Positions 2,112 to 62,609 of a DNA stretch of 64,000 nucleotides are shown here, in pieces; positions within the stretch are counted from its first letter, which is position 1, and every line of letters starts with the position of its first letter. A program made the position numbers and the translations under genes. Under the pieces are notes generated by a model. That model worked only from the letters and a program-made list of their open reading frames with translations, did no database searches and had not been told where the DNA came from. Origin of the DNA: a virus (Duplodnaviria; Heunggongvirae; Uroviricota; Caudoviricetes); the IMG/VR virus record IMGVR_UViG_2718217859_000011, positions 23,757 to 87,756 of that record. One strand, written 5' to 3'.

Positions 2112-2426
2112 ATGTATAACGATGAACATAAATATACCGCCTGCATGCAGGCCATGAATGAACAATTTAAATCAGCATTCCTTAAACTCATTCAGCAAAA
2201 CCACGAAGCAGTAAAATCCATTCAGGCTGAGCCGTATGGACACCTCACACCACCAACTCTCGACATTATGTCCAGAATATTAACACCAGCCATGCTTCTA
2301 CGTCTGAAAGACAATATAAATGACTGGTTAAACGAAGAATTAAACTACCTTGAATGTGAGTGGGATCATCATTACGCCAAATCACAAAAAGAACGCATCT
2401 TCCGTCGATTATCCGGCAACAGATAA
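2112..2426 (+). CDS. Hypothetical protein (104 aa), oriented against the late operon
   Basis: ATG at 2112 with GAGGA RBS; convergent with the 2436-3077 gene; no family recognised. Confidence 0.5.
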   Translation: MYNDEHKYTACMQAMNEQFKSAFLKLIQQNHEAVKSIQAEPYGHLTPPTLDIMSRILTPAMLLRLKDNINDWLNEELNYLECEWDHHYAKSQKERIFRRLSGNR

Positions 2427-2435
2427 CGAGCCAGC

Positions 2436-3077
2436 TTATATACGTCCTTTAAGATAAGTCAGTCCTGGATGAAACCAGTAAGCCGGCACTTTTTTAAAGG
2501 GCGGATTATCAAAATCACGAAGAAGAGCCTCCCGCACAACTGCATCCTTGTCCGCACCACTGGCCAGCGCTTCAATCTCAGCAGCTACCTGCAGATATCC
2601 CATGCAACGACCAATGCGCTTCATTAGTCCCTGCTTTTTATTGTTCTTCAGGTAATCAATGGCAAATTCAATGAGCGCCTCACTGTGCTGGTGCGATGCT
2701 GGTGTTACTTTTCCATCTTCACGGATCGTGATATTCCAGTCATCGCTTGTCACAATAAAAGATGGCCGATTATCCCCCCATTCCTGGTCTTTATCCGGTG
2801 CAGACGCAATAAAATAACGTTTATTGCCTTCCTCTCCGGCACTTTTAACTGTAATGGAGTACTTTTCTGACAATGCGGTCGGTAAAAACTTTTCCTGCAA
2901 AATCTTCGCAAAGGTCCTGCGAGCAATTTTGATGCAATCATCGTAAAACGCTGCTTCCTGCTCATCGCGGCGTTTTTTTTCATCTTCAGAAACCATCAGC
3001 ACCGACAGTTTTTTATTCAGTTCAGTGATTTCATTTTCCAGGCAACTTATGCGCTGATTCATTTCTTCATGGTTCAT
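2436..3077 (-). CDS. Hypothetical protein (213 aa, N-terminal coiled coil), cargo gene inserted between pinholin and endolysin
   Basis: ATG 3 nt after the pinholin stop with GGGGAGAG RBS inside the end of the pinholin gene; AT-rich relative to flanks. Confidence 0.55.
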   Translation of the reverse strand: MNHEEMNQRISCLENEITELNKKLSVLMVSEDEKKRRDEQEAAFYDDCIKIARRTFAKILQEKFLPTALSEKYSITVKSAGEEGNKRYFIASAPDKDQEWGDNRPSFIVTSDDWNITIREDGKVTPASHQHSEALIEFAIDYLKNNKKQGLMKRIGRCMGYLQVAAEIEALASGADKDAVVREALLRDFDNPPFKKVPAYWFHPGLTYLKGRI

Positions 3078-3080
3078 CGT

Positions 3081-3296
3081 CTACTCTCCCCGCGCCGCCT
3101 TACGCCGGTCCTCTCTGATTTTGAAATACAGGTTAGTCAGGTACGTCAGCAGGCCAAACAGCAGACTCCCCAGCACACCTATCGCCACCCACTGGGACGG
3201 AGAGACTTTGTCCAGCAGCTGCAGTAACCAGTATCCCGTCCCCACCGCTGACGTGGTGTATGACACACCTGTTGTGATTTTTTCCATCTGGTACAT
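3081..3296 (-). CDS. Pinholin (phage 21 S21-like holin/antiholin with dual start MYQM)
   Basis: 71 aa; C-terminus [27 protein letters not shown] matches the S21 pinholin pattern; two TM segments; dual-start motif Met1/Met4. Confidence 0.8.
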
Positions 3297-3597
3297 ACCC
3301 CGTCTCCCGTTATCCGGAAGCTGACAACAATAAAAAAGCCACCCGTTAATTACTGATGGCTCTGATGCATAAACGTCATCATTCCCGACCGTTATGATTG
3401 ACAATGGTTATCATTTTTATATAAAAATACTCCCGATATGTGTTACATATCATTTCTCCACGGGGAATATCCCCACGCCAGCGTCAGACTCGTTTTCCCG
3501 TTCTCTTCTGTGCTGGCGTTTTTTTATCATGATGTCGGTACATTTATCTCCAGCACCAGGCTTTCAATCTCAACACCATACGCGGAATTTTTGGGCG

Positions 3598-3627
3598 TAA
3601 AAAATCCCCTCCGGTGAGGGGATTTGC
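3598..3627 (-). terminator. Strong hairpin (aatcccctc cggt gaggggatt) upstream of the lysis cassette
   Basis: 9-10 bp GC-rich stem with flanking A/T runs; lies between the moron block and the pinholin gene. Confidence 0.4.
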
Positions 3628-3856
3628 TTATGTAAACATTTACACTGCTTACCTGCATGGTGCCGGGTGCCTCCCGGTGAATTCAGTATCAGCACCTGAA
3701 TCCGCAATTATCCCATATACCTACTTGCTGATTGCCCCTCCGCACAGGGGGATTCACCATGCGAAATTTTTTTAACAAATGCTCAGTCTGACAGGCAACT
3801 GTCAACTGACTGAATTGTGAGACAATTAAAATTTTCTGGGCGTAACTGATACCCGG

Positions 3857-4021
3857 TTAACTACCTGGCATGTCCTTTTTCACCAAAGGAAAAAGCACCA
3901 CCACAATACCGACCACCAGCACTCCATCCGCCAGCACCGACATGATCCTGCTGGTGAAATCCACCATCACCACCAGAAACAGCAGGAGTGCCACAGCGGC
4001 CAGACGCAGTTTTACCGTCAC
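3857..4021 (-). CDS. Small hydrophobic peptide (54 aa, GTG start overlapping the TerB-like stop)
   Basis: Reverse-strand frame VTVKLRLAAVALLLFLVVMVDF...VVVLFPLVKKDMPGS; GTGA start/stop overlap with the upstream gene; below the 60-aa ORF-track cutoff. Confidence 0.35.
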   Translation of the reverse strand: MTVKLRLAAVALLLFLVVMVDFTSRIMSVLADGVLVVGIVVVLFPLVKKDMPGS

Positions 4022-4449
4022 AGGTGGTTCTCCAGTCGCAGGCCAAGAACACCAGCAATCTCTTCCAGAACCTTACGCTCTTCCGGCTCAATTTCACCAT
4101 CTGCTTCAGCAATGGCCACCGCCACATCCAGCACATCTTCCGCTTCACGCGTATCGTGTTTCACATCTTCAATTTCACGCAACGCTGCACGACGACCAAT
4201 TTTAAAATTGGTGTCAAGCTGACCTGTGATCGTGGCACTGATGGCATTAATTTCTGACGTAAATGCGGACAATGCTGGCTGGTTACGTAATACCTGTTCG
4301 ATCTTCGCTTTCTCTGAAGTCTCACATTCACCATCTGCATAGGCCACCAGGTAGGCAGCATTAATAACCGCCTGTGCCAGATCGCGTTTCTCAAACTTTT
4401 TAATTTCAGTTGCTGCTCTGCGGGTTTTCTTTTTGAAAATACCAAACAT
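4018..4449 (-). CDS. TerB-like (tellurite-resistance TerB family) protein
   Basis: 143 aa with paired ADGExxxxE-type motifs (LVAYADGECETSEKAKIEQV, IAEADGEIEPEERKVLEEI); AAAGGAAA RBS. Confidence 0.55.
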   Translation of the reverse strand: MFGIFKKKTRRAATEIKKFEKRDLAQAVINAAYLVAYADGECETSEKAKIEQVLRNQPALSAFTSEINAISATITGQLDTNFKIGRRAALREIEDVKHDTREAEDVLDVAVAIAEADGEIEPEERKVLEEIAGVLGLRLENHL

Positions 4450-4622: not shown

Positions 4623-4699
4623 TGGCGCGTTGTACTGGATTCGAACCAGTGACCGATTGCTTAGAAGGCAATTGCTCTGTCCGACTGAGCTAACAACGC
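4623..4699 (-). tRNA. tRNA-Arg (anticodon UCU)
   Basis: Reverse complement GCGTTGTTAGCTCAGTCGGACAGAGCAATTGCCTTCTAAGCAATCGG...GGTTCGAATCC..ACAACGCGCCA folds as a cloverleaf; anticodon loop CTTCTAA. Confidence 0.8.
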
Positions 4700-4712: not shown

Positions 4713-4793
4713 TGGACCGCCATCGAGGACTCGAACCCCGCACCAACAACCCTGTTATCGTGTCGTCTGCTCTTCCTGATGAGCTAATGGCGG
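4713..4793 (-). tRNA. tRNA-like sequence with atypical anticodon arm (possible degenerate tRNA)
   Basis: Acceptor stem CCGCCAT/ATGGCGG, D-arm and T-arm (GGTTCGAGTCC) are recognisable but no clean 5-bp stem with 7-nt anticodon loop could be folded by eye. Confidence 0.35.
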
Positions 4794-4800
4794 TATGTTA

Positions 4801-4876
4801 TGGTGGCCCTTGCTGGATTTGAACCAGCGACCTGGCGATTATGAGTCGCTCGCTCTCACCACTGAGCTAAAGGGCC
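4801..4876 (-). tRNA. tRNA with anticodon CAU (Ile2/Met type)
   Basis: Reverse complement GGCCCTTTAGCTCAGTGGTGAGAGCGAGCGACTCATAATCGCCAGGTCGCTGGTTCAAATCCAGCAAGGGCCACCA; anticodon loop CTCATAA. Confidence 0.75.
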
Positions 4877-4916
4877 GGGCGCAGGATAATAACGGTACGT
4901 AACTAATTCTGCAATA

Positions 4917-5975
4917 TCATCCGTTCTGACTGACTAAATCCTGAACTTCCCTCACCGTCTGATCAAAACGCCCGGTCTCCAGCTCAACGCCAATTGCACG
5001 ACGTCCCAGCGCCATCGCTGCTTTGACCGTCGAACCCGACCCCATGAAAAAATCTGCAACCAGAGCTCCCGGACGACTGCTGGTGGTAATTATCTGACGC
5101 AACATCTCCGCCGGTTTTTCACAGGGATGTTTGCCGAGGTAATACTGTACAGGCTTATACATCCAGACATCCGTATACGGAACAGCAGCCGATACAGAAA
5201 AATAACGCCGCAAAGATTTGTACTCCTCCAGCGGGCTGGCATATTGCCGGTTAAGTTCACTGTATGTGCTGACCAGCTGGTGGTGTGGCTTTTCCAGTTC
5301 CCCGCGTTGATGTTTTTCTGCTGCAACACGCGCAAACAACGCCTGCAGTTTTCTGTAATCATCCTCGTTCGGTAACTGCCACTGGCGGGCACCAAACCAG
5401 TGCGACACCATGTTTTTCTTTCCGGTGGCTTCCGCTATCTGTTTTGACGTTATTCCCAGTGATTCACGCGCATCACGAAAGTAAGAAATCAGCGGGGCCA
5501 TGACGTGCTGTTTTAGCTCGCGCCCCTTTGCCGCATAGCCGTCATTTTTGGGCTGGTATGGCCCCTGATAATGTTCTGCAAACAGAATGCGTTCTGTCGC
5601 CGGGAAATACGCCCGCAGGCTTTCCTTGCTGCACCCGTTCCAGCGCCCGGACGGCTTCGCCCAGATAATGTGATTCAGCACATTAAAGCGTTCACGCATC
5701 ATGATTTCGATATCAGATGCCAGGCGATGACCACAGAACAGGTAAAGACTTCCGGCGGGCTTTAATACCCGCCAGAACTGCGCCAGACACTGGTCCAGCC
5801 ATTTCAGGTAATCATCATCGCCCTTCCACTGGTTATCCCAGCCCTCGGGCTTCACTTTAAAGTATGGCGGGTCTGTGACTATCAGGTCGACAGAGTTTTC
5901 CGGTAAGGCCTGGATAAACTCCAGGCAATCAGCGTTGATTAACTCACAACTGGATATTTTTACAGTATCAACCAT
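4917..5975 (-). CDS. DNA methyltransferase (N6-adenine/N4-cytosine type; DPPY motif before the C-terminal SAM-binding FMGSGST)
   Basis: 352 aa; motif IV VTDPPY near the N-terminus and FxGxG near the C-terminus (beta-class permutation). Confidence 0.8.
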   Translation of the reverse strand: MVDTVKISSCELINADCLEFIQALPENSVDLIVTDPPYFKVKPEGWDNQWKGDDDYLKWLDQCLAQFWRVLKPAGSLYLFCGHRLASDIEIMMRERFNVLNHIIWAKPSGRWNGCSKESLRAYFPATERILFAEHYQGPYQPKNDGYAAKGRELKQHVMAPLISYFRDARESLGITSKQIAEATGKKNMVSHWFGARQWQLPNEDDYRKLQALFARVAAEKHQRGELEKPHHQLVSTYSELNRQYASPLEEYKSLRRYFSVSAAVPYTDVWMYKPVQYYLGKHPCEKPAEMLRQIITTSSRPGALVADFFMGSGSTVKAAMALGRRAIGVELETGRFDQTVREVQDLVSQNG

Positions 5976-6125: not shown

Positions 6126-6323
6126 TCACTGCGGAAGGCGTCTGTAACAACCGAACTGATAATCTGCCAGACCCGCCATAACAAGCTGGGTCAGTATTAA
6201 CTGACAGCGTTCGCGTGAAAGGTAAGTATTCTGCGCAATTTCCCCGACGGTCGCCGGTTCGGTGACACTTAATTCATTAAACACCACTCTGGCGGTTTCG
6301 GTCATATCCTGCTGTTTTAGCAT
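6126..6323 (-). CDS. Small putative DNA-binding protein (65 aa)
   Basis: ORF from MLKQQDMTETARV; HTH-like segment EIAQNTYLSRERCQLILTQL. Confidence 0.35.
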   Translation of the reverse strand: MLKQQDMTETARVVFNELSVTEPATVGEIAQNTYLSRERCQLILTQLVMAGLADYQFGCYRRLPQ

Positions 6324-6497
6324 GTCTTTTTCCCTTTTCTGGTTAACGTGACATACCAATACCTCTTGTCGAAAAAGCCAGCAAGCTGAAAGACCGGTAT
6401 TAATAACCACCAGCGCGTTTAATATACCGCACCACTTTCGGGGCATAAAAAAATGCTCAATGACGGGCAGTAAAAATTCTTTGTTACTCAGGTGATT

Positions 6498-7217
6498 TTA
6501 ACGCACCCTGACAATGTTAATTTCAAAATCATCAATATGTCCGCTATTAAGTATAACGAATTTCGTACTCCCACTTCTGTACGATTTTGATAACACAAGA
6601 CGATCATCATAGCGTGCAAGAACGTAATACCAGACATTATCATAGTGGATCGACTGATATTCCCTCTTAAACTGGGGTTTGTACCAACCGGCAATAAGAG
6701 AGAATGTCCAGAAATAAATCATGAATCCAGCCATCATGAACTCAATTCGGTGATGGCGAATAAAAGATACTTCCGAAAAGCATTTGACTGAAATAAGTTT
6801 TCTTCCTGACCTGACAAAAAGCGTAATTATAAAGACAGCAATAACACAAAAAATAAGCACATCTGGCTCAACGTACTGATGAATGACCGAAAATTCCAGA
6901 ACAGGTGGAATAAAAAGCAGCAATATTGCCAGAAAAAGTCTGATAAAACTCAAATTCTGTATATTGTTTTTTTGTTTTATGCCTAAAAAGAAAACAATAC
7001 CAACACCCCATCCAGTAAGGAATATAACGATAACGGTCACAGCATAAAACAAACTTCGGGCCACATCATCAACGCCAGCTCCGACAACCCACCATGGAAA
7101 GCCATAGTAAAAGGAAGTACCCCATCCATAGAAATAAGCGCTTCCCCATCCAAGACAGCCCATATAAGCAATAAAAAGTGAAGAGTTCCTCAGTAGAGTA
7201 CTGTCATCCATACCCAT
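6498..7217 (-). CDS. AT-rich multi-pass membrane protein (239 aa), late-operon moron
   Basis: 5-6 predicted TM segments rich in W/Y/F/G; markedly AT-rich coding sequence; lies directly downstream of the candidate late promoter. Confidence 0.55.
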   Translation of the reverse strand: MGMDDSTLLRNSSLFIAYMGCLGWGSAYFYGWGTSFYYGFPWWVVGAGVDDVARSLFYAVTVIVIFLTGWGVGIVFFLGIKQKNNIQNLSFIRLFLAILLLFIPPVLEFSVIHQYVEPDVLIFCVIAVFIITLFVRSGRKLISVKCFSEVSFIRHHRIEFMMAGFMIYFWTFSLIAGWYKPQFKREYQSIHYDNVWYYVLARYDDRLVLSKSYRSGSTKFVILNSGHIDDFEINIVRVR

Positions 7218-7351
7218 CTCTCTAACAATTTAAAAACATTGACTCACCTTACATAACAAAGGAGATTCCATGCAGTCAAGAGACTTCAGAGCAGGAGAAA
7301 CTCATTGCACAATCGCCATCACGTTTAACGTTATGCACCGCTTTTCGGGCA

Positions 7352-7373
7352 CAAAAAACCCGCTCTATGGCGG
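7352..7373 (-). terminator. Candidate early terminator of the late promoter transcript (tR'-like)
   Basis: Hairpin cccgc-tctatg-gcggg followed by T6 on the minus strand, about 50 nt downstream of the candidate promoter. Confidence 0.4.
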
Positions 7374-7422
7374 GCTGTAAAAATTCTTCTAACGTCAGGC
7401 ATAAAGCACCCATAATTAGGGC

Positions 7423-7450
7423 AAACTTACCACAGATTCGGGAAAAATCA
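7423..7450 (-). promoter_or_regulatory. Candidate late promoter (pR'-like) immediately downstream of the Q-like gene
   Basis: Minus-strand TTGATT, 16-bp spacer, TAAGTT; position relative to the Q-like gene and downstream hairpin. Confidence 0.3.
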
Positions 7451-7456
7451 ATAACA

Positions 7457-8278
7457 CTAGCACATTACCCTCTTTAACTGCCGCTCCGCCCATGCCTCTT
7501 CAATGTCAAACCGAACCACCAACGTATCGTAAAAGCGCTTCACTGATTTTTTCCATGTATCAAGTGTAATAGCACTCGTCACTTTGCATATGGCATTAAA
7601 TGCCTCTGTTGACGGCAATCTTTCATAGCCACGACCGCCACAACGCTGGCAGTCCCTGATAACCGGCATCCCCCGTTTTTCCGACTCTTCACGATGAACG
7701 GCAATACCGCGCCCACGGCAGTCTTTACAGGCAGTGGAAATCTCCCCCTTCCCTTTACATTCCGGGCAGGAAACTTTTACCACCTCCCTGACTTTTTTCC
7801 ATTCTTCCCAGTAAGACGGATACACACCTTTCGTACACTTTGCCCATACTGGCGGCTTGCCATCCGGATACTGAACCTTGTTTGTAAAAACTTCGCTTTC
7901 AATAAATCTTTCCCCATGGCAACAAGGGCACTGCTTTTTACTCGCTGCGCTGCGGGCGTAATCCTCAAAAGCGTACGAAGCCATAATGCGCATCACTACC
8001 GGTTTTATTTCTGCCGGGAGTTTTCTTAACGCCGAGACGCGATCGCACTGACTTAATGCATAATCTGCCAGTAATTCTGTTGCCCGCGCCCTGTCATTCA
8101 TACTAATGCCCATTTTCCCCAGGAACGCAGAAAATCCCATCTCAGCCCGGTTCTGTGTCATACCCTGCGCAGCCATCACATCAGTGATACTCAGCGCATC
8201 TTTTGACGTCGAAGCGGATGCATCAGTCAGGCCTGGGGATTTTGGGGAATAGTATTTCGGTAAATCTTCCAGTTTCAT
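7457..8278 (-). CDS. Late-gene antiterminator Q-like protein (Cys-rich zinc-binding)
   Basis: 273 aa with multiple CxxC pairs (CPCC, CPEC, CKDC, CQRC); sits between rusA and the late promoter/lysis region, as in lambdoid phages. Confidence 0.55.
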   Translation of the reverse strand: MKLEDLPKYYSPKSPGLTDASASTSKDALSITDVMAAQGMTQNRAEMGFSAFLGKMGISMNDRARATELLADYALSQCDRVSALRKLPAEIKPVVMRIMASYAFEDYARSAASKKQCPCCHGERFIESEVFTNKVQYPDGKPPVWAKCTKGVYPSYWEEWKKVREVVKVSCPECKGKGEISTACKDCRGRGIAVHREESEKRGMPVIRDCQRCGGRGYERLPSTEAFNAICKVTSAITLDTWKKSVKRFYDTLVVRFDIEEAWAERQLKRVMC

Positions 8279-8649
8279 TTTTGGACCTGACCGTCATGCA
8301 TTATTTCGTAAATCTTCACACCCAGCCGACCACCAGGAACAGGCAGTCCGCGCACAATATTAATTTCATCAAACTGCTCGTCGTCGATAAGCAGTCCCGC
8401 ATGCGTCAGCGCATCCAGCGGTGCCTTCAGGATATTGTCCAGGTCACGACGGCGTTTATCCGGTGGCTCTGCAATAATTTTTATTGCCAGCCTTCCCGAC
8501 AGGTTTAATTTCAACCGCTGCTGGCGAACAATGAGCGCCAAATCACGGCGATAACGCTCACCGGCTTTTGATACAAAATATGTGCTGCCATGACGTCGCC
8601 AGTAGGTGTTCACCGTCAGCGGGTAAGGCAAAACAAACTCTATACACAT
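8275..8649 (-). CDS. rusA: RusA Holliday-junction resolvase
   Basis: 124 aa; LPYPLTVNTYWRR and RRRDLDNILKAPLDAL motifs typical of RusA. Confidence 0.8.
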   Translation of the reverse strand: MCIEFVLPYPLTVNTYWRRHGSTYFVSKAGERYRRDLALIVRQQRLKLNLSGRLAIKIIAEPPDKRRRDLDNILKAPLDALTHAGLLIDDEQFDEINIVRGLPVPGGRLGVKIYEIMHDGQVQK

Positions 8650-11158: not shown

Positions 11159-11554
11159 TTACCGAGTTGCTAATTTGCAACTCGCTTTTTCGTACTTACT
11201 GATAGTGATCTCGACCTTACCTTCCGGGATAACCGGTCCCCACTCCACCAGCATTCTTTTCACCTGACTGTCGTCTTCCCACACCCCCGCGTGGGTCAGG
11301 GCGTCAAACAGCGCCTTGTTATAGTTGTCCAGATCGCGGATCCGGTTATCCGGAGGAAACAACACGATCTCCACTGAAGCAGGTGCCGACGTTGGTTTCG
11401 GCAGACGACGTAACTGCTCAACTATTGCTGCGCACGCCGCGCTCTGGAATTTTCGCCCCGCCGCGCTTATCAGGCTCTTACCAGCAAACGCCCCTTTGTT
11501 GGGGTGTCGCCAGTACGTGTTCACGCTGGGCGGGAAAGGCAGTATTAGCTTCAT
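11159..11554 (-). CDS. Second RusA-family resolvase paralog
   Basis: 131 aa; PPSVNTYWRH and NRIRDLDNYNKALFDALTHAGVWEDD match the RusA signature. Confidence 0.7.
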   Translation of the reverse strand: MKLILPFPPSVNTYWRHPNKGAFAGKSLISAAGRKFQSAACAAIVEQLRRLPKPTSAPASVEIVLFPPDNRIRDLDNYNKALFDALTHAGVWEDDSQVKRMLVEWGPVIPEGKVEITISKYEKASCKLATR

Positions 11555-54453: not shown

Positions 54454-55128
54454 ATGAAAACAGTCCATGACATCCGGCGGTCTAACGCCAGAAAACTGAG
54501 AGATGGTGTTGGCGGGAATTCTTCCTTTGCCACCATGATTGATCGCGAACCAACCCAGACCAGCAGGTTTATGGGAGATGGTGCTACTAAAAATATCGGT
54601 GACAGCATGGCACGGCACATCGAAAAATGTTTCGACCTGCCTGTCGGATGGCTTGATCAAGAACACCAGACAACGAACATCACAAAAAAACCTGATGTTT
54701 CAATCACTAATAAACAAATAACGTTAGTCCCTGTCATATCATGGGTACAGGCCGGAGCATGGAAAGAAGTTGGCTATTCTGAGGTTGATTTGAGCACAAC
54801 AGAAACATATCCCTGCCCTGTACCCTGTGGCGAAATGACTTATATATTGAGGGTGATTGGTGATTCAATGATTGATGAGTACCGTCCGGGGGACATGATT
54901 TTTGTCGATCCAGAAGTACCAGCCTGCCACGGTGATGACGTTATTGCATTGATGCACGATACAGGTGAAACCACCTTCAAAAGGTTGATAGAAGACGGGA
55001 CACAGCGTTATCTCAAAGCATTAAACCCCAACTGGCCTGAGCCTTACATTAAGATAAACGGTAATTGCTCTATCATTGGTACAGTTATTTTCTCAGGAAA
55101 ACCAAGAAGATACAAAATTAAAGCCTGA
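54454..55128 (+). CDS. CI-like repressor (N-terminal HTH, C-terminal LexA/S24-type peptidase domain)
   Basis: 224 aa; C-terminal region with Ser...Lys-type self-cleavage domain pattern (RVIGDSMIDEY...KRL). Confidence 0.7.
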   Translation: MKTVHDIRRSNARKLRDGVGGNSSFATMIDREPTQTSRFMGDGATKNIGDSMARHIEKCFDLPVGWLDQEHQTTNITKKPDVSITNKQITLVPVISWVQAGAWKEVGYSEVDLSTTETYPCPVPCGEMTYILRVIGDSMIDEYRPGDMIFVDPEVPACHGDDVIALMHDTGETTFKRLIEDGTQRYLKALNPNWPEPYIKINGNCSIIGTVIFSGKPRRYKIKA

Positions 55129-55140
55129 TCAATGTCTATG

Positions 55141-55166
55141 AACCTGCTTCGGCAGGTTTTTTTATA
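55141..55166 (+). terminator. Rho-independent terminator after the CI-like gene
   Basis: aacctgc-ttcg-gcaggtt hairpin followed by ttttttt. Confidence 0.6.
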
Positions 55167-55323
55167 CTTGACAATGTACCATTAAGATACATAATGTACC
55201 TGCATAAGATATCGAACAGGCAGGACGCCCACGAAGTAGCCGTCCGGGGCATACGAAGACCGGAATGATTCGTAAATAAAAAAGCGCCCAAGTGGACGCT
55301 TCACTTTTGAACTGGATTTATAA

Positions 55324-55533
55324 TCAATTATTTTCTTCATAAATGTTTTGTAATGTATTTATGAGATTTGGTATTTCTTTTATGGGAAAAGAATATATTG
55401 GACTTTCGATAATTTTATCAGATTCAAATGGTGGTTGTTTGCAGGACAGTTGAACTATAACTGAATTATGATCTTTAACTGGCACACAGTACCAACCACA
55501 TACATCAAAAACAGGAGTATTTTGATTATCCAT
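55324..55533 (-). CDS. Small AT-rich protein (69 aa) adjacent to the immunity region
   Basis: ATG at 55533 with GAGG RBS; very AT-rich gene and flanks. Confidence 0.4.
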   Translation of the reverse strand: MDNQNTPVFDVCGWYCVPVKDHNSVIVQLSCKQPPFESDKIIESPIYSFPIKEIPNLINTLQNIYEENN

Positions 55534-55799
55534 TATGTCCTCGACAACTAAAAACACTGCGTACAAACCTCAAAAGCAGGGAGTTATTTATAAAATTTCA
55601 TAAAGAATAATTACTGATAGCGACAATTCATTGTTCTTGAATTTTGAAAAATAGCAAGACAAAACAATGTAAACTTATTTAAGAAAACTTCTTATTATGT
55701 AAACAAAACAACCAATTCGTTATATAGGAAAAACAAATAGTACGCAAGAAAATATTCAACAGGGGTATTACATTCAACCATAAGAGTAATCGTCTCTTT

Positions 55800-56377
55800 G
55801 GTAACTAATACCGAACATTTTATTGTAACACGTCGTATGGCACATGCGTCGTTAGCGGTCTGGGGACGTTAAAGGGGACAATCCACTCCTTGCTCGGGCA
55901 AACAAACCAGGTAGCCGGAATGTGCAAGTCAATGATGATGCTGATAAGACGCCTAACCAGCGTGGCGATCCGGTTTGACGCCTGGGAAGAGACCAGGGTG
56001 CAACGATGAGGGCATTTATGGAGCCGCGACAAAGTGTGGTGCCGTAACTGGCTAAGTGCTCTCAGCGTTGTGGTAATCCGCGAAATGGCGCGGCGGTAAG
56101 TATGGCGGGGTTACTCTTTCCCCGTTGAGGACACCGGATTGTCAGGTTGACCATACGCCTGAGTGACAACCCCACCACAACAGCCACTGCTTTGGCGGTA
56201 CCAGTTTGTACACTTGCTTCCGGCTGGTACCGCTCTTTTTACAAAACAGAGAAGAGCATCACCGGACGACGGGCTCATAACCCAATCCATCCGGGCGGCT
56301 GCCACCGCAGGTGTTCTTCTCTGTTTTGTGGAGAAACCAACCGACCTTGCAGGGTCGATATGATGAGGAGCAGCAAA
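55800..56377 (+). other. ORF-poor, structured leader region upstream of the early operon
   Basis: About 580 bp without a convincing ORF on either strand; several long inverted repeats. Confidence 0.35.
56196..56240 (+). terminator. Strong hairpin with U-tract inside the leader (candidate terminator/attenuator with boxA-like CGCTCTTTTTA)
   Basis: gcggtaccag...ctggtaccgc 10-bp stem followed by tcttttta. Confidence 0.45.
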
Positions 56378-60326: not shown

Positions 60327-60748
60327 CCTCGCGCATACAGCCGGGCAGTGACGTCATCGTCTGCGCGGAAATGGACGAACAGTGGGGCTATGTCGGGGCT
60401 AAATCGCGCCAGCGCTGGCTGTTTTACGCGTATGACAGTCTCCGGAAGACGGTTGTTGCGCACGTATTCGGTGAACGCACTATGGCGACGCTGGGGCGTC
60501 TTATGAGCCTGCTGTCACCCTTTGACGTGGTGATATGGATGACGGATGGCTGGCCGCTGTATGAATCCCGCCTGAAGGGAAAGCTGCACGTAATCAGCAA
60601 GCGATATACGCAGCGAATTGAGCGGCATAACCTGAATCTGAGGCAGCACCTGGCACGGCTGGGACGGAAGTCGCTGTCGTTCTCAAAATCGGTGGAGCTG
60701 CATGACAAAGTCATCGGGCATTATCTGAACATAAAACACTATCAATAA
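60245..60748 (+). CDS. insB: IS1 InsB (expressed as InsAB' by frameshift)
   Basis: 167-aa ORF overlapping insA in the -1 frame. Confidence 0.9.
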
Positions 60749-60763
60749 GTTGGAGTCATTACC

Positions 60764-60771
60764 GGTTTTGT
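60764..60771. repeat. Target-site duplication GGTTTTGT (right copy) of IS1
   Basis: Matches 59988-59995. Confidence 0.7.
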
Positions 60772-60818
60772 TGTACACTAAAGGCCATATGGTTTTTTAT
60801 TATGTTTGGATAAGATAA

Positions 60819-61004
60819 ATGAATGTAATAGCATTTGATGAAATAGAATCTAGCATAGCCGCCAATGATCAGGTTGATTCTATCTGCATTGAATTAACAA
60901 CATTTAATCAAGATAATGTCATTTCATTTGAAAGTAAAAAGAAAAATAAAGAAATTCTTGATGCATTTTTTGAAATAATAAATACTGATATAGTTTTCGA
61001 CTAG
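60819..61004 (+). CDS. Small acidic AT-rich ORF (61 aa) upstream of the deaminase gene
   Basis: Weak; could be a real small protein or a noncoding/sRNA region. Confidence 0.3.
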   Translation: MNVIAFDEIESSIAANDQVDSICIELTTFNQDNVISFESKKKNKEILDAFFEIINTDIVFD

Positions 61005-61091
61005 GTAATTAGCAATGGCTGAAGCAGCAAAAAAACTCCACAAAAGCTGAATGAAAAAAAAGGCTCAACATCGGCATCATCACTTGAGATT

Positions 61092-62609
61092 GTGAATTCA
61101 CGACAATCAAAAGATATTTATCTTGGATTGTGTGGATATGTTGGATGTGGCATGAGAACGATAAACAAAATTATCGAAGAGATATCCAAAGAATGGGGGT
61201 ATAATGTTGTACACATCCGCATAAGTGCGCTTATGGAAAACCCATTATATTTTGAGCCAGCAGCACTGAAGGTATCCGAAAGCACACAAGTTAATAGACA
61301 TTTAAAACTCCAGGATATTGCCAATAAACTTCGTAAACATTACAAAAAAAATGAGTTGCTTGCAGAAGCTGCTATTGCAGCAATCGCAGCAGAGAAAAAT
61401 AATATTGATTATAATAATGATGAATATAAAGGTACTGTCTTCATCATTGATCAATTCAAAAGGCCGGAAGAAATAGAGTTATTCAGAGTTATATATCAGC
61501 ATAATTTCTATTTGTTAGGAGTTTTGCGCGATTTAGATTACCGAATTCCGAATCTCATTGATGACGAATCGACAAAGAACGACCTTCATTTAATTATCAA
61601 TATTGATAATAAATCCTCTGATCCGTATGGACAAAGAACCGGGGAGACCATTCTTGATTCAGATTTTTTTATTAAAAATAACTTCAGCCAAAAAAGTGAA
61701 TTAAAGAAGAAGATTGATCGGTTTTTCGGTCTTATTCATGGCAAAAATGGTTTAACACCAACTTTTAACGAGAAAGGTATGTATGCTGCCTTTTCAACAT
61801 CATTACAATCAGCTTGTTTATCACGTCAAGTAGGGGCTGCACTGTTTGATGATGAAGGGAATTTGCTTGCCGTGGGTAAGAACGACGTACCTAAAGCTGG
61901 TGGCGGGTTGTATAGCAGTGATGATTTTGATAACGATCATCGATGCGTTCACAAAAGTGGTAAGTGTTATAATGATGCAAACAAGCTAAAAATTAAAGAC
62001 CGTATAAAAAGCATATTATCAACCGAAGTAAGAACTGTATTAGGTATTTCCGCAGGACAAACTGTTGCCGATATTAATATAACACGACTTCTAAACAAAT
62101 TAGATAATATTGCAGAAGGCATTTACAAAGACAGCAAAATATCAAGTGTAATGGAGTACTCCAGATCAATTCATGCTGAAATGGACGTCATTACATCAAT
62201 GGCTAGAAAACAAAACGGCGATACTAAAGATAAAATTCTTTTTACGACAACCTATCCCTGCCACAACTGTGCAAGGCATATTGTCGCAGCTGGAATAAAA
62301 AAAGTAGTATATATAGAGCCATTTGATAAAAGCCTTGCTCTTGATCTGCATAATGATGCAATAACAAAGAACGAAGAATCTTCCAAAGTAATATTTTGTG
62401 ATTTTGAGGGGGTATCACCCCGCCGCTACCATAAATTTTTTAGACCAACGGATGAACGTAAAGATGATAAAACAGGGGCTGCAAATAAATTTAATGCTCG
62501 CTACAAAAATCATATAGATGTTCAATATCTTGATGATTATAGAAAGTATGAGACTGTTGTAGCTAAGAAATTTATAAACGAGATTGCTAAACCAGAGTCT
62601 CAGCCATAA
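61092..62609 (+). CDS. Two-domain protein: N-terminal NTP-binding-like domain + C-terminal cytidine/deoxycytidylate deaminase domain (AvcD/dCTP-deaminase-like defence candidate)
   Basis: 505 aa; C-terminal zinc-deaminase signature HAEMDVI ... PCHNCARHIVAAGIKKVVYIEP; N-terminal glycine-rich loop GLCGYVGCGMRT; strongly AT-rich. Confidence 0.65.
   Translation: MNSRQSKDIYLGLCGYVGCGMRTINKIIEEISKEWGYNVVHIRISALMENPLYFEPAALKVSESTQVNRHLKLQDIANKLRKHYKKNELLAEAAIAAIAAEKNNIDYNNDEYKGTVFIIDQFKRPEEIELFRVIYQHNFYLLGVLRDLDYRIPNLIDDESTKNDLHLIINIDNKSSDPYGQRTGETILDSDFFIKNNFSQKSELKKKIDRFFGLIHGKNGLTPTFNEKGMYAAFSTSLQSACLSRQVGAALFDDEGNLLAVGKNDVPKAGGGLYSSDDFDNDHRCVHKSGKCYNDANKLKIKDRIKSILSTEVRTVLGISAGQTVADINITRLLNKLDNIAEGIYKDSKISSVMEYSRSIHAEMDVITSMARKQNGDTKDKILFTTTYPCHNCARHIVAAGIKKVVYIEPFDKSLALDLHNDAITKNEESSKVIFCDFEGVSPRRYHKFFRPTDERKDDKTGAANKFNARYKNHIDVQYLDDYRKYETVVAKKFINEIAKPESQP

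Follow-up and report, generated by a model that had tools for sequence, protein, structure and literature searches.

The window (the whole 64,000-nucleotide stretch of DNA analysed) includes on its minus strand genes for DUF968 and RusA, an antiterminator Q of the PF03589 family, a 239-bp intergenic region and a gene coding for a membrane protein, which is followed on its 3' side by a small ORF, an N6/N4 DNA methylase gene, a tRNA-Met/Ile2-like gene, a tRNA-Arg gene, TerB, DUF3927 and a P21-type holin gene (Table 1). Besides PF03589, Q matches PHROG 127 and PHROG 25523, 'anti-termination protein Q-like'. The intergenic region located 3' of Q contains an intrinsic terminator preceded by a promoter-like site. 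The latter, a candidate pR', consists of TTGATT (7451-7446) and TAAGTT (7429-7424) separated by a 16-nt spacer ending in TGG; it was not reported by the promoter scan, and it is kept in L183, an empty-site prophage described below, as well as in other loci whose Q is of the window type. Phage 434 has TTGCAA-17-TATACT at an analogous position, upstream of its annotated terminator. The tR'-like terminator of the window has a G+C hairpin with an RNA folding energy of -10.7 to -11.4 kcal/mol, and the element is also found in L183. At this site Rfam gives a weak Trp_leader-like match (E 0.13), which corresponds to an attenuator-like hairpin. The initial annotation had placed the membrane-protein gene in the Q-dependent late transcript, and its position agrees with this, being that of the first gene past the Q-proximal promoter and terminator and ahead of the methyltransferase and tRNA genes.

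Table 1. Features of the membrane-protein locus, in the order of the minus strand.
Feature	Coordinates	Strand	Remarks
Antiterminator Q	7457..8278	minus	273 aa; PF03589 7.4e-51; DnaJ-type zinc-finger region
Candidate Q-dependent late promoter pR'	7424..7451	minus	Read directly from sequence
Direct repeat D1, upstream copy	7343..7388	minus	Contains the intact tR'
Intrinsic terminator, tR'-like	7350..7376	minus	Terminator scan; hairpin AGCCCGCC...GGCGGGTT, then U-run
Promoter-like element of the cassette	7250..7279	minus	Candidate extended -10 sigma-70 promoter
Membrane protein CDS (probable start)	6498..7211	minus	237 aa + stop; intact ORF
Direct repeat D1, downstream copy	6436..6481	minus	Decayed tR'
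65-aa ORF (orf65)	6126..6323	minus	PHROG 331, weak HTH/TrmB-like; RefSeq annotation of identical sequence
P21-type holin	3081-3404		3.1 kb downstream of the membrane-protein gene

In the ORF list the membrane-protein ORF is read from its first ATG (6498..7217, minus strand, 239 aa), which adds two codons (MG) to a reading from nucleotide 7211. Because the second methionine, at 7211, is the start in all homologues and the sequence AGAGAG is located 6 nt 5' of its ATG, the true start is probably at 7211 and the product is likely 237 aa long. The identical sequence in RefSeq, WP_024166254.1, is also called as 237 aa. The ORF as first annotated is confirmed, with a probable correction of its length of 239 aa. 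Of 171 related loci, 170 carry the ORF undamaged, and its dN/dS is 0.11-0.19, which indicates that it is a real gene under purifying selection and not a chance ORF. The constraint is strongest in the N-terminal 56 residues.

Kyte-Doolittle windows above 1.4 define four strong segments and a weaker one, and an AlphaFold2 model generated from 53 sequences (pLDDT 83.5, pTM 0.77) includes five long helices (residues 12-38, 49-80, 91-113, 118-140 and 157-183) followed by a C-terminal five-stranded beta domain of about 55 aa (residues 186-237). Both analyses support the original description of a protein that crosses the membrane several times and ends in a soluble domain, and the protein is aromatic-rich as had been noted, with 24 F, 8 W and 15 Y accounting for 19.8% of the 237 residues. 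We are highly confident that the product is an inner-membrane protein, with a predicted architecture of five TM helices and then a C-terminal SH3-like beta barrel. Small residues form a ladder along TM1 (A27, G31, S35 and G39), and TM5 has an invariant glycine, G177; TM1 and the predicted first periplasmic loop are highly conserved and aromatic/glycine-rich. No catalytic-type residues conserved family-wide were found in the alignments. The short loops have a mean of 7.45 K+R on the proposed cytoplasmic side versus 0.74 on the opposite side, and because of this positive-inside count we infer a topology with the N-terminus inside and the C-terminal beta domain in the periplasm.

The passage of TM helices into a small beta-barrel domain is similar in gross layout to the MscS family, and an oligomeric channel in which these domains form a ring could be considered. 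The best Foldseek matches in the PDB were all MscS-family chains, the last TM helix of the model continues straight into the beta domain, and the TM1 ladder and G177 would be compatible with such an assembly. However, none of the matches reached significance, with E values from 0.35 upwards, probabilities of 0.18 or less and a TM-score of about 0.16. There was no match to MS_channel (PF00924) even at E<=10, and the beta domain is predicted to lie on the other side of the membrane from that of MscS, all of which makes a channel very unlikely. A sequence profile search of the PDB gave no solved-structure match at E<=10, and the comparison of the model to BFVD by Foldseek gave none with E<=0.001.

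The protein matches PHROG 1521 (3.7e-84, residues 19-239 versus profile positions 1-221 of 222). In addition, the precomputed label PF27470.1 ('TfpB') is found on 100 of 100 homologues, including proteins 90% identical, and on every homologue from all three homologue searches, the Pfam assignment being based on these labels. It is very probable that the protein is a member of the small, uncharacterised but catalogued family PHROG 1521 / PF27470. Members can be aligned end to end down to 15-30% identity and have in common the aromatic/Gly-rich TM1 and loop motif, five TM segments, the C-terminal beta domain and a size of about 235-250 aa. Named members are the 'putative membrane protein' CPT_434_68 of phage 434, a protein of phage 2B8, WP_001302581.1 of E. 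coli O157:H7 and WP_011114760.1 of Shigella pINV, and these agree in architecture and in length (237-238 aa). The 434 homologue is 56% identical to that of the window and is located at the same place, directly after Q and its terminator. While the window allele belongs to a group with 76-100% identity, the 434/O157/pINV group stands apart at 56-59%, and the Q that precedes the window gene is the 273-aa PF03589 type and not Q82-like or lambda-like. Phages 434 and 2B8 were recovered from the phage collection by tblastn only, megablast of the same collection gave no match to the gene, and a viral scan with an alignment of the distant subgroup returned only enterobacterial loci.

Membership in this family gives a name and not a function for any member. 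No annotated Pfam or NCBIfam family matched the protein even at E<=10, the PHROGs that matched at this threshold were all of unknown function, and with PADLOC-DB 2.0 no defence-protein family matched at E<=0.1. The candidate roles named in the initial annotation, superinfection exclusion and abortive infection, therefore have no counterpart among these family matches. The alternative that it raised, a housekeeping phage protein (a holin, for example), was looked for in Pfam and PHROG at E<=10, and no such homology was found, holin families included. The annotated PHROG and Pfam families at E<=10 likewise included none homologous to characterised exclusion proteins, and a literature search returned no information on the function of the gene. 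The label 'TfpB' could be taken to suggest an accessory protein of type IV pili or type II secretion, tfpB being presumably an ORF in the Moraxella pilin-inversion region. This label is present on precomputed matches only. No pilin, secretin, PilB/C/Q or Gsp genes were found in the contexts examined, which were prophages, plasmids and the chromosomes of Neisseria, Avibacterium, Mannheimia, Klebsiella and Mangrovibacter; the homologue searches and cluster look-ups included no TfpB-named protein or Moraxella member, and the literature search found no paper tying the name to the PF27470 family. The pilus link was rejected as unsupported, and a role of this kind is scarcely credible.

An intact empty site, in which the order is Q-tR'-orf65 and the cassette is absent, was found in 1063 of 5426 complete E. 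coli genomes using as query a synthetic cassette-less junction, a match being one piece that covered positions 1-666 of 668 with 90-92% identity. An example of such a locus has the order Q - tR' - orf65 - methylase - holin, and in prophage L183 Q, tR' and orf65 are contiguous with no cassette. In 43 of the 67 loci with the Q type of the window, the next gene after Q is the 65-aa ORF. In sister prophages that share this Q, the place directly after tR' is occupied instead by Stx2A, TerB or PDC-M18A, the latter a PADLOC candidate defence protein (1.6e-196). The two copies of repeat D1 in the window (46 nt, 78% identity) have a spacing of 907 nt, and their homology reaches about 80 nt in a three-way alignment. 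The downstream copy of tR' forms no hairpin in the window, where its -3.5 kcal/mol equals that of shuffled controls, but it is an intact hairpin with a T-run in relatives L019 and L030.

We are confident, as for the family and the architecture, that a 907-bp moron cassette located between tR' and the small ORF of a lambdoid E. coli prophage carries the membrane-protein gene as cargo, and that, besides this gene, it comprises a conserved promoter-like element and a second tR' copy, decayed in the window. Since this copy has no hairpin, transcripts should continue into the 65-aa ORF, the methylase gene and the tRNA genes. A 106-aa reading of the 65-aa ORF (to 6446) was discarded as an over-extension whose extra N-terminal portion is the decayed tR' repeat. 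The cassette can be considered a clean natural example of cargo slotted into the pR'-tR' leader via duplication of the terminator region.

The promoter-like element of the cassette includes TTGACT (7279-7274), an 18-nt spacer ending in TGT, and TATGTA (7255-7250). Of 170 loci, 163 have a TTGAC-N16-TGT-TATG element, invariably 66-69 nt from the ATG. It is identical at 26 of 31 positions (84%) between the window and phage 434 alleles, for which the identity is 64% over the CDS and 45% at third positions, and it is kept on the ETEC LT plasmids, where nothing further upstream is common. By these comparisons the element is more conserved than the coding sequence, and it keeps this identity between alleles with saturated synonymous sites. 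Its -10 hexamer is weak (TATGTA/TATGAG; the final T is absent), and a consensus scan gave no promoter.

The gene has a GC content of 0.383 and a GC3 of 0.362, compared to 0.491 and 0.500 for Q, 0.495 and 0.515 for the 65-aa ORF, and 0.517 and 0.567 for the methyltransferase gene; within the 64 kb, 4.3% of the 720-nt windows are equally AT-rich. These values (0.383 versus 0.49-0.52) bear out the initial view of the gene as compositionally foreign and more AT-rich than its neighbours. That view had been extended to a recent acquisition, which was rejected as the meaning of the AT-richness because 68 of 68 alleles have a GC of 0.36-0.42 and a GC3 of 0.30-0.45. Since this set includes alleles 48-56% identical to that of the window, with synonymous sites saturated, comparison of the alleles indicates that AT-richness is an old, family-wide trait. 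The cassette is an insertion, its exact empty site being present in 1063 E. coli genomes, but 'recent' does not fit the composition of the alleles or the decay of the downstream repeat copy.

The family was found in 1196 of the 5426 complete E. coli genomes (about 22%), commensal and UPEC included, with a median of 2 and up to 4 places per genome, so that several divergent alleles can coexist in one genome. Its members follow four unrelated Q types, and in nearly all prophage loci, whichever the Q type, the gene is the first after pR'/tR', about 210-250 bp past Q. At many loci it shares the interval with TerB and DUF3927 genes. Members are present in an O157:H7 prophage and in phage 434, which came from sewage. 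Outside prophages, solitary members located among housekeeping genes were found in Neisseria, Avibacterium, Mannheimia and metagenome contigs, and others are carried by virulence plasmids as described next.

Several neighbours of the family gene could suggest an accessory factor for virulence or colonisation in enteric pathogens, for example one that alters the envelope, co-inherited with toxins and effectors. The gene adjoins stx, which is located before or after it (L021, L049, L009), a gene for an LT-A-like ADP-ribosyltransferase (L073) and, in C. rodentium, lpxR fragments; on ETEC plasmids it lies 866 bp from eltAB (LT-I). In S. enterica subsp. arizonae and diarizonae it adjoins a 408-aa ORF with an N-terminus that we take to be SseJ-like. 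On Shigella pINV, where IS elements and gene remnants abound elsewhere, it is intact in 106 records, between virA and spa40 of the spa operon. However, location alone can explain the association, as phage-borne toxins occupy the Q-proximal cargo site and parts of that site are still found with the plasmid copies, for example the tRNA fragment that follows the family gene on LT plasmids. The high frequency of the family in commensal and UPEC genomes and its presence in a sewage phage also speak against a virulence function, which we consider improbable.

No conserved partner gene of the family gene was found across more than 10 kinds of context. Because intact copies are present on ETEC and Shigella plasmids and as solitary chromosomal genes of Neisseriaceae and Pasteurellaceae, the protein very likely works without phage partners, a statement that we make with the same high confidence as those on the cassette and the family. 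In kind the gene is unremarkable, a prophage-borne moron of a catalogued family, and its distribution is the notable part.

A stand-alone multi-pass protein of this type could be an orphan immunity-like protein acting against membrane damage of non-phage origin, such as that caused by pore-forming colicins, CDI/T6SS membrane toxins or envelope stress. The solitary insertions at differing chromosomal sites across genera resemble those of orphan immunity genes, and the lack of a partner gene in any context and the coexistence of divergent alleles in one genome are in line with this explanation. So is the frequent presence of TerB and DUF3927 genes in the same interval, ter-type genes being linked to tellurite, colicin and phage resistance. 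On the other hand, no cognate toxin gene was seen near any locus, no colicin-immunity or other immunity Pfam family matched at E<=10, and with 237 aa and a folded periplasmic domain the protein is larger than the usual colicin immunity proteins, which generally have 3-4 TM segments. An immunity function of this kind is rather unlikely.

We regard as about equally unlikely a late lytic function, which could consist of lysis timing, of barring progeny injection into infected or lysing cells, or of phage or toxin release. The location of the gene as the first after pR'/tR' in nearly all prophage loci is in line with such a function, a holin-endolysin cassette is found within about 740 bp after it in L024-L028 and L077, and in the window the decayed downstream terminator implies co-transcription with the rest of the late operon. 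Nevertheless, the same prophage backbone exists without the cassette in the 1063 genomes mentioned above and the gene must be dispensable for the lytic cycle. Intact copies are also found where Q, holin and virion genes are absent, as on pINV, the LT plasmids and the Neisseria and Pasteurellaceae chromosomes, and the window includes a separate holin gene (Table 1) while no holin family matches the membrane protein. Holin or lysis activity as the primary role was rejected because the cassette is absent from these similar prophages and present in non-phage contexts. If the protein acts late, this could bear on toxin and phage release.

Our tentative proposal is that the membrane protein is a stand-alone inner-membrane envelope protein that protects the carrier cell, most likely of the superinfection-exclusion type. 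The conserved TM1, the first periplasmic loop and the periplasmic domain would stop the genome of an incoming phage from passing the inner membrane. Expression could be dual, from the cassette's own element in the lysogen and by strong Q-dependent read-through of tR' after induction. The other cargo after tR' in sister prophages (Stx2A, TerB or the candidate defence protein PDC-M18A) favours this proposal, although association with cargo sites is guilt by location only. Other observations also weigh against it: a gene purely for lysogen protection has no need of the late expression that its place after pR'/tR' guarantees, the chromosomal copies fixed in Pasteurellaceae and Neisseriaceae could mean a general envelope function, the -10 of the candidate promoter is weak, and so AT-rich a gene may be H-NS-silenced. 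A further possibility, which we consider doubtful, is that the family represents a class of stand-alone proteins, not recognised before, that protect the cell at the inner membrane and whose fold resembles no solved structure. They would block an inner-membrane step of phage genome entry, or of a membrane toxin, through the invariant aromatic/glycine TM1-loop motif and the periplasmic SH3-like domain by a mechanism unrelated to those of SieA, Imm and RexB. Were the gene an exclusion or immunity determinant, it would represent a new single-gene mechanism and help explain which phages superinfect toxin-carrying lysogens.

The cassette can be compared with known morons, the concept being used here as in PMC3594210. 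As is the case for bor and lom of lambda and the morons of HK97, it is an extra transcription unit separating genes that lie side by side in related phages. It is also AT-rich relative to its flanks and includes a promoter-like element, and the terminator expected of a moron, decayed in the window copy, is intact in relatives. Like the stx cargo, it occupies the interval from Q to the holin. Unlike these morons, it lies inside the pR' leader/terminator region and is bracketed by the duplicated tR'.

With regard to exclusion proteins, the product would be, like SieA of P22, Imm of T4 and gp15 of HK97, a small phage-borne inner-membrane protein acting alone, but no relationship to these in sequence or fold was detectable. 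SieA is a protein of 162-164 aa with 3 predicted TM segments that blocks DNA injection (PMC10883804), and the family resembles it in having several divergent sequence types with one architecture. The conserved motif of SieA is predicted to be cytoplasmic, while the window protein is predicted to include five TM segments followed by a periplasmic C-terminal beta domain.

The reading frame that the initial annotation placed at nucleotides 6498-7217 is present, but it lies on the minus strand, where it counts 239 amino acids from its first ATG. The second methionine, at 7211, is the start in all homologues and has the sequence AGAGAG 6 nt upstream, and the gene probably starts there rather than at 7217. 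The product corresponds to the RefSeq 237-amino acid "hypothetical protein" WP_024166254.1, whose sequence is identical in E. coli strain RM9088 and in another 11 complete genomes. An intact ORF of 237 or 238 amino acids, in 68 distinct alleles, was found in 170 of the 171 loci with a match to the N-terminus. Compared with the window allele, dN/dS was 0.11 to 0.19 over a range of dS from 0.19 to saturation, with the strongest constraint on the first 56 residues; the gene is real and under selection.

The protein matches PHROG 1521 (function unassigned) at 3.7e-84, and all homologues carry the precomputed label PF27470, "TfpB". Searched exhaustively with a profile, 1.84 billion cluster representatives yielded only 69 matches. 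The main enterobacterial group includes E. coli, Shigella, E. albertii, Citrobacter, Enterobacter, Klebsiella, Cronobacter, Salmonella, and Yersinia; a further subgroup from enterobacteria, sharing about 20% identity, is found in Klebsiella, Raoultella, Mangrovibacter, Lonsdalea, and Enterobacter, and other members occur in Neisseriaceae and Pasteurellaceae. Blastn analysis detected a copy in 1196 of 5426 complete E. coli genomes, often as two to four copies.

The gene follows Q, a promoter-like site, and an intrinsic terminator; it precedes a methylase gene and tRNAs, as had been annotated. The order downstream is the 65-amino acid ORF (PHROG 331), an N6/N4 DNA methylase, the two tRNAs, TerB, DUF3927, and a P21-type holin. 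The succession of promoter, short leader, and terminator is the layout that a late promoter dependent on Q would have together with its tR', and these sites are candidates for the two. Phage 434 has a matching layout, with TTGCAA-17-TATACT read upstream of a terminator that is the only one of these elements annotated in its record. This arrangement shows the gene placed where Q-modified polymerase would have to transcribe it. A function late in the lytic cycle (timing lysis, protecting progeny, or releasing toxin) would agree with such a position, but we regard it as unlikely.

Features of the gene and its surroundings in the window
Feature	Position	Strand	Remarks
213-aa ORF	2436-3077	-	Just downstream of the holin gene in the lysis region; RefSeq "hypothetical protein"; no Pfam match
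Esr41-like Rfam match	3437-3527	+	Beside STnc100; sub-threshold (39 bits; gathering score 102)
STnc100 sRNA (Rfam)	3593-3791	-	Strong match (148.7 bits, E 4.5e-34), lying between DUF3927 and holin
DUF3927 small membrane protein	3857-4021	-	Immediately after the TerB-family gene
TerB-family gene	4018-4449	-
tRNA-Arg	4623-4699		Flanks the "tRNA-OTHER" site
"tRNA-OTHER" (third RefSeq tRNA)	~4713-4793	-	Annotated in the identical RM9088 sequence (L002, 7314-7394); called by neither ARAGORN nor Rfam; may be a degenerate tRNA
tRNA-Met/Ile2-like	4801-4876		Flanks the "tRNA-OTHER" site
65-aa ORF	6126-6323		PHROG 331, weak TrmB-like HTH; probably the real gene here
106-aa ORF	6126-6446	-	Over-extension; N-terminal codons cross the decayed tR' repeat
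Direct repeat of terminator region	6436-6481 and 7343-7388	-	46 nt, 78% identity, 907-nt spacing
Membrane-protein gene	6498-7211	-	PHROG 1521
Conserved element CTCTTGACT-N15-TGT-TATGTA	7279-7250	-	~70 nt past the terminator; 68 nt from TTGAC to ATG
Intrinsic terminator	stem 7376-7357 + U-run	-	Fold -10.7 to -11.4 kcal/mol
Promoter-like site TTGATT-16-TGG-TAAGTT	7451-7424	-	Read from sequence; kept with the same Q type
Q	7457-8278	-	PF03589 at 7.4e-51; ends at 7457
RusA-family genes (two)	8275-8649 and 11201-11554	-	39% identical to each other

The terminator region recurs past the stop codon of the gene. In the window this downstream copy has lost its hairpin (-3.5 kcal/mol, no more stable than shuffled sequence); the related loci L019 and L030 retain it intact. 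A query made by joining nucleotides 6126-6481 to 7389-7700, thus deleting the gene and one copy of the repeat, was found uninterrupted (1-666 of 668, 90 to 92% identity) in 1063 of the 5426 complete E. coli genomes. One prophage with such an empty site, L183, has the order DUF968, RusA, Q, tR', 65-amino acid ORF, methylase, holin, and a three-way alignment showed a duplication of about 80 nt from the tR' region, with one copy at each end of the 907-bp insertion. The membrane-protein gene is an inserted cassette.

Among 67 IMG/VR prophage fragments with the Q type of the window, the first gene after Q was the 65-amino acid ORF in 43, the membrane-protein gene in six, and the TerB region in about seven; Stx2A (L245), the methylase, the holin, and the 346-amino acid PADLOC candidate defence protein PDC-M18A (L214, 1.6e-196, at the site of the cassette) were each found once. 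Since the first genes differ, the position right after tR' is a variable cargo site and behaves as a cargo hotspot. In the IMG/VR fragment L019 (about 4750-5000) the cassette lies about 1.4 kb past the methylase instead of after Q, and retains a pR'-like promoter and tR' copy of the window's Q type next to a resident Q that is Q82-like, a sign that promoter, terminator, and gene may travel together as a whole module from one late region to another.

A TTGAC...TTTGTTATG element precedes the gene in 163 of 170 loci, or 31 of the 37 different upstream sequences, at 66 to 69 nt from the ATG with a sole outlier at 77. The window and phage 434 alleles agree at 26 of the 31 positions of this element, against 64% identity for the coding sequence and 45% for third positions; the regulatory element is more conserved than the gene it precedes. 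Its TTGACT, 18-nt spacer, and TGn would fit an extended -10 promoter; the usual final T is missing from the -10 hexamer (TATGTA or TATGAG), and a consensus promoter scan reported no promoter. Likeness of enterotoxigenic E. coli (ETEC) plasmids to the phage loci starts just upstream of this element, and the Shigella pINV plasmids have only the coding sequence in common with them.

The G+C content of the gene is 0.383 (GC3 0.362), and the gene is indeed more AT-rich than its neighbours Q, the small ORF, and the methylase, at 0.49-0.52 (GC3 0.50-0.57); of the 720-nt windows in the 64 kb, only 4.3% reach such an AT content. The recent acquisition deduced from this composition did not hold, because all alleles, including those 48 to 56% identical and the Neisseria copies, have a G+C content of 0.36-0.42 (GC3 0.30-0.45), making AT-richness a stable family trait and not a sign of recent gain by this prophage. 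The AT-richest segments of the window, about 55,000-55,800 and 60,700-61,600 (0.32-0.33 in 720-nt windows), exceed the gene in this respect.

In prophages the gene lies 210 to 250 bp after Q of at least four types: the 273-amino acid PF03589 protein, a Q82-like protein, an E. cloacae type, and the 207-amino acid Q of an O157:H7 prophage, taken to be lambda-like by its length and NinG/phosphatase neighbours. In phage 434 (where it is annotated "TciB"), O157:H7, and many IMG/VR loci, a DUF3927 gene comes directly after the membrane-protein gene rather than after TerB as in the window. Family members are found before stx (L021, L049), after stxAB (L009), beside an LT-A-like gene (L073), and, on ETEC plasmids, 866 bp from eltAB, with a tRNA remnant and IS elements after them. 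On the ETEC plasmids L010-L014 this remnant is the first ~14 nt of a phage tRNA-Ile2-like gene, cut by an IS element, and its survival indicates that the LT-I flank on these plasmids derives from a lambdoid Q-proximal region. In 106 Shigella pINV records the member sits between virA and spa40, and lpxR adjoins it in phage 434 and C. rodentium. In Salmonella enterica subsp. arizonae and diarizonae (L006, L007) it lies about 500 bp from a divergent 408-amino acid ORF (2260-3525, minus strand), whose N-terminus (MPFSVGQGYF...WEKIKA) we take to be SseJ-like, i.e., that of an SPI-2 effector. The Klebsiella subgroup occupies an accessory region of prophages, together with SRAP, umuDC, a reverse transcriptase, and a DNA invertase, and solitary copies stand between housekeeping genes in Neisseria, Avibacterium, Mannheimia, and metagenome contigs. 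A virulence accessory could be imagined from the toxin and pINV settings, but seems distinctly unlikely. No conserved partner gene was found among the prophage, plasmid, and chromosome contexts examined, nor were pilin or secretion genes near the family member; the pilus accessory that the "TfpB" label implies is highly improbable. The gene is thus shown to be dispensable, mobile, partner-independent cargo with its own conserved upstream element, encoding a predicted inner-membrane protein.

Hydropathy identified four strong hydrophobic segments and a weaker one. An AlphaFold2 model from 27 close homologues was poor (pLDDT 58), and one from 53 sequences including distant members (pLDDT 83.5, pTM 0.77) has five long helices (12-38, 49-80, 91-113, 118-140, 157-183) and then a beta domain of five strands (186-237), which bears out the multi-pass membrane protein with a C-terminal soluble part that had been proposed. 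Of the protein's residues, 19.8% are aromatic. In the 53-sequence alignment the K+R count is 7.45 for the N-terminus and loops 2 and 4 and 0.74 for loops 1 and 3, and this concentration of positive charge predicts an N-in, C-out topology. The most conserved parts, TM1 (with a ladder of aromatic and small residues), the GFPWW loop, the first part of TM2 (DDVARSL), and the C-terminal beta domain, would then lie at or beyond the periplasmic face. The nearly invariant residues (A17, A27, Y28, Y30, G33, G39, P41, P104, F169, G177, Y197) do not look catalytic, so a binding or packing role appears more likely than an enzymatic one; an MscS-like channel seems very unlikely.

The upstream element would drive expression in the lysogen, and the functional surface would face the periplasm. 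A protein that protects the carrier cell, of the superinfection-exclusion type, is the reading that we tentatively prefer; it has no homology with SieA. Immunity to membrane toxins other than those of phages is unlikely, and the remaining probability falls to some explanation outside those listed. Because the family adjoins major enteric toxins and occurs on pINV, it is a reasonable, if unsurprising, experimental target. In sequence the protein belongs to a family that has already been catalogued, and in its genetics the gene is a moron of the textbook sort; neither kind is new, and RefSeq already contains the identical protein.
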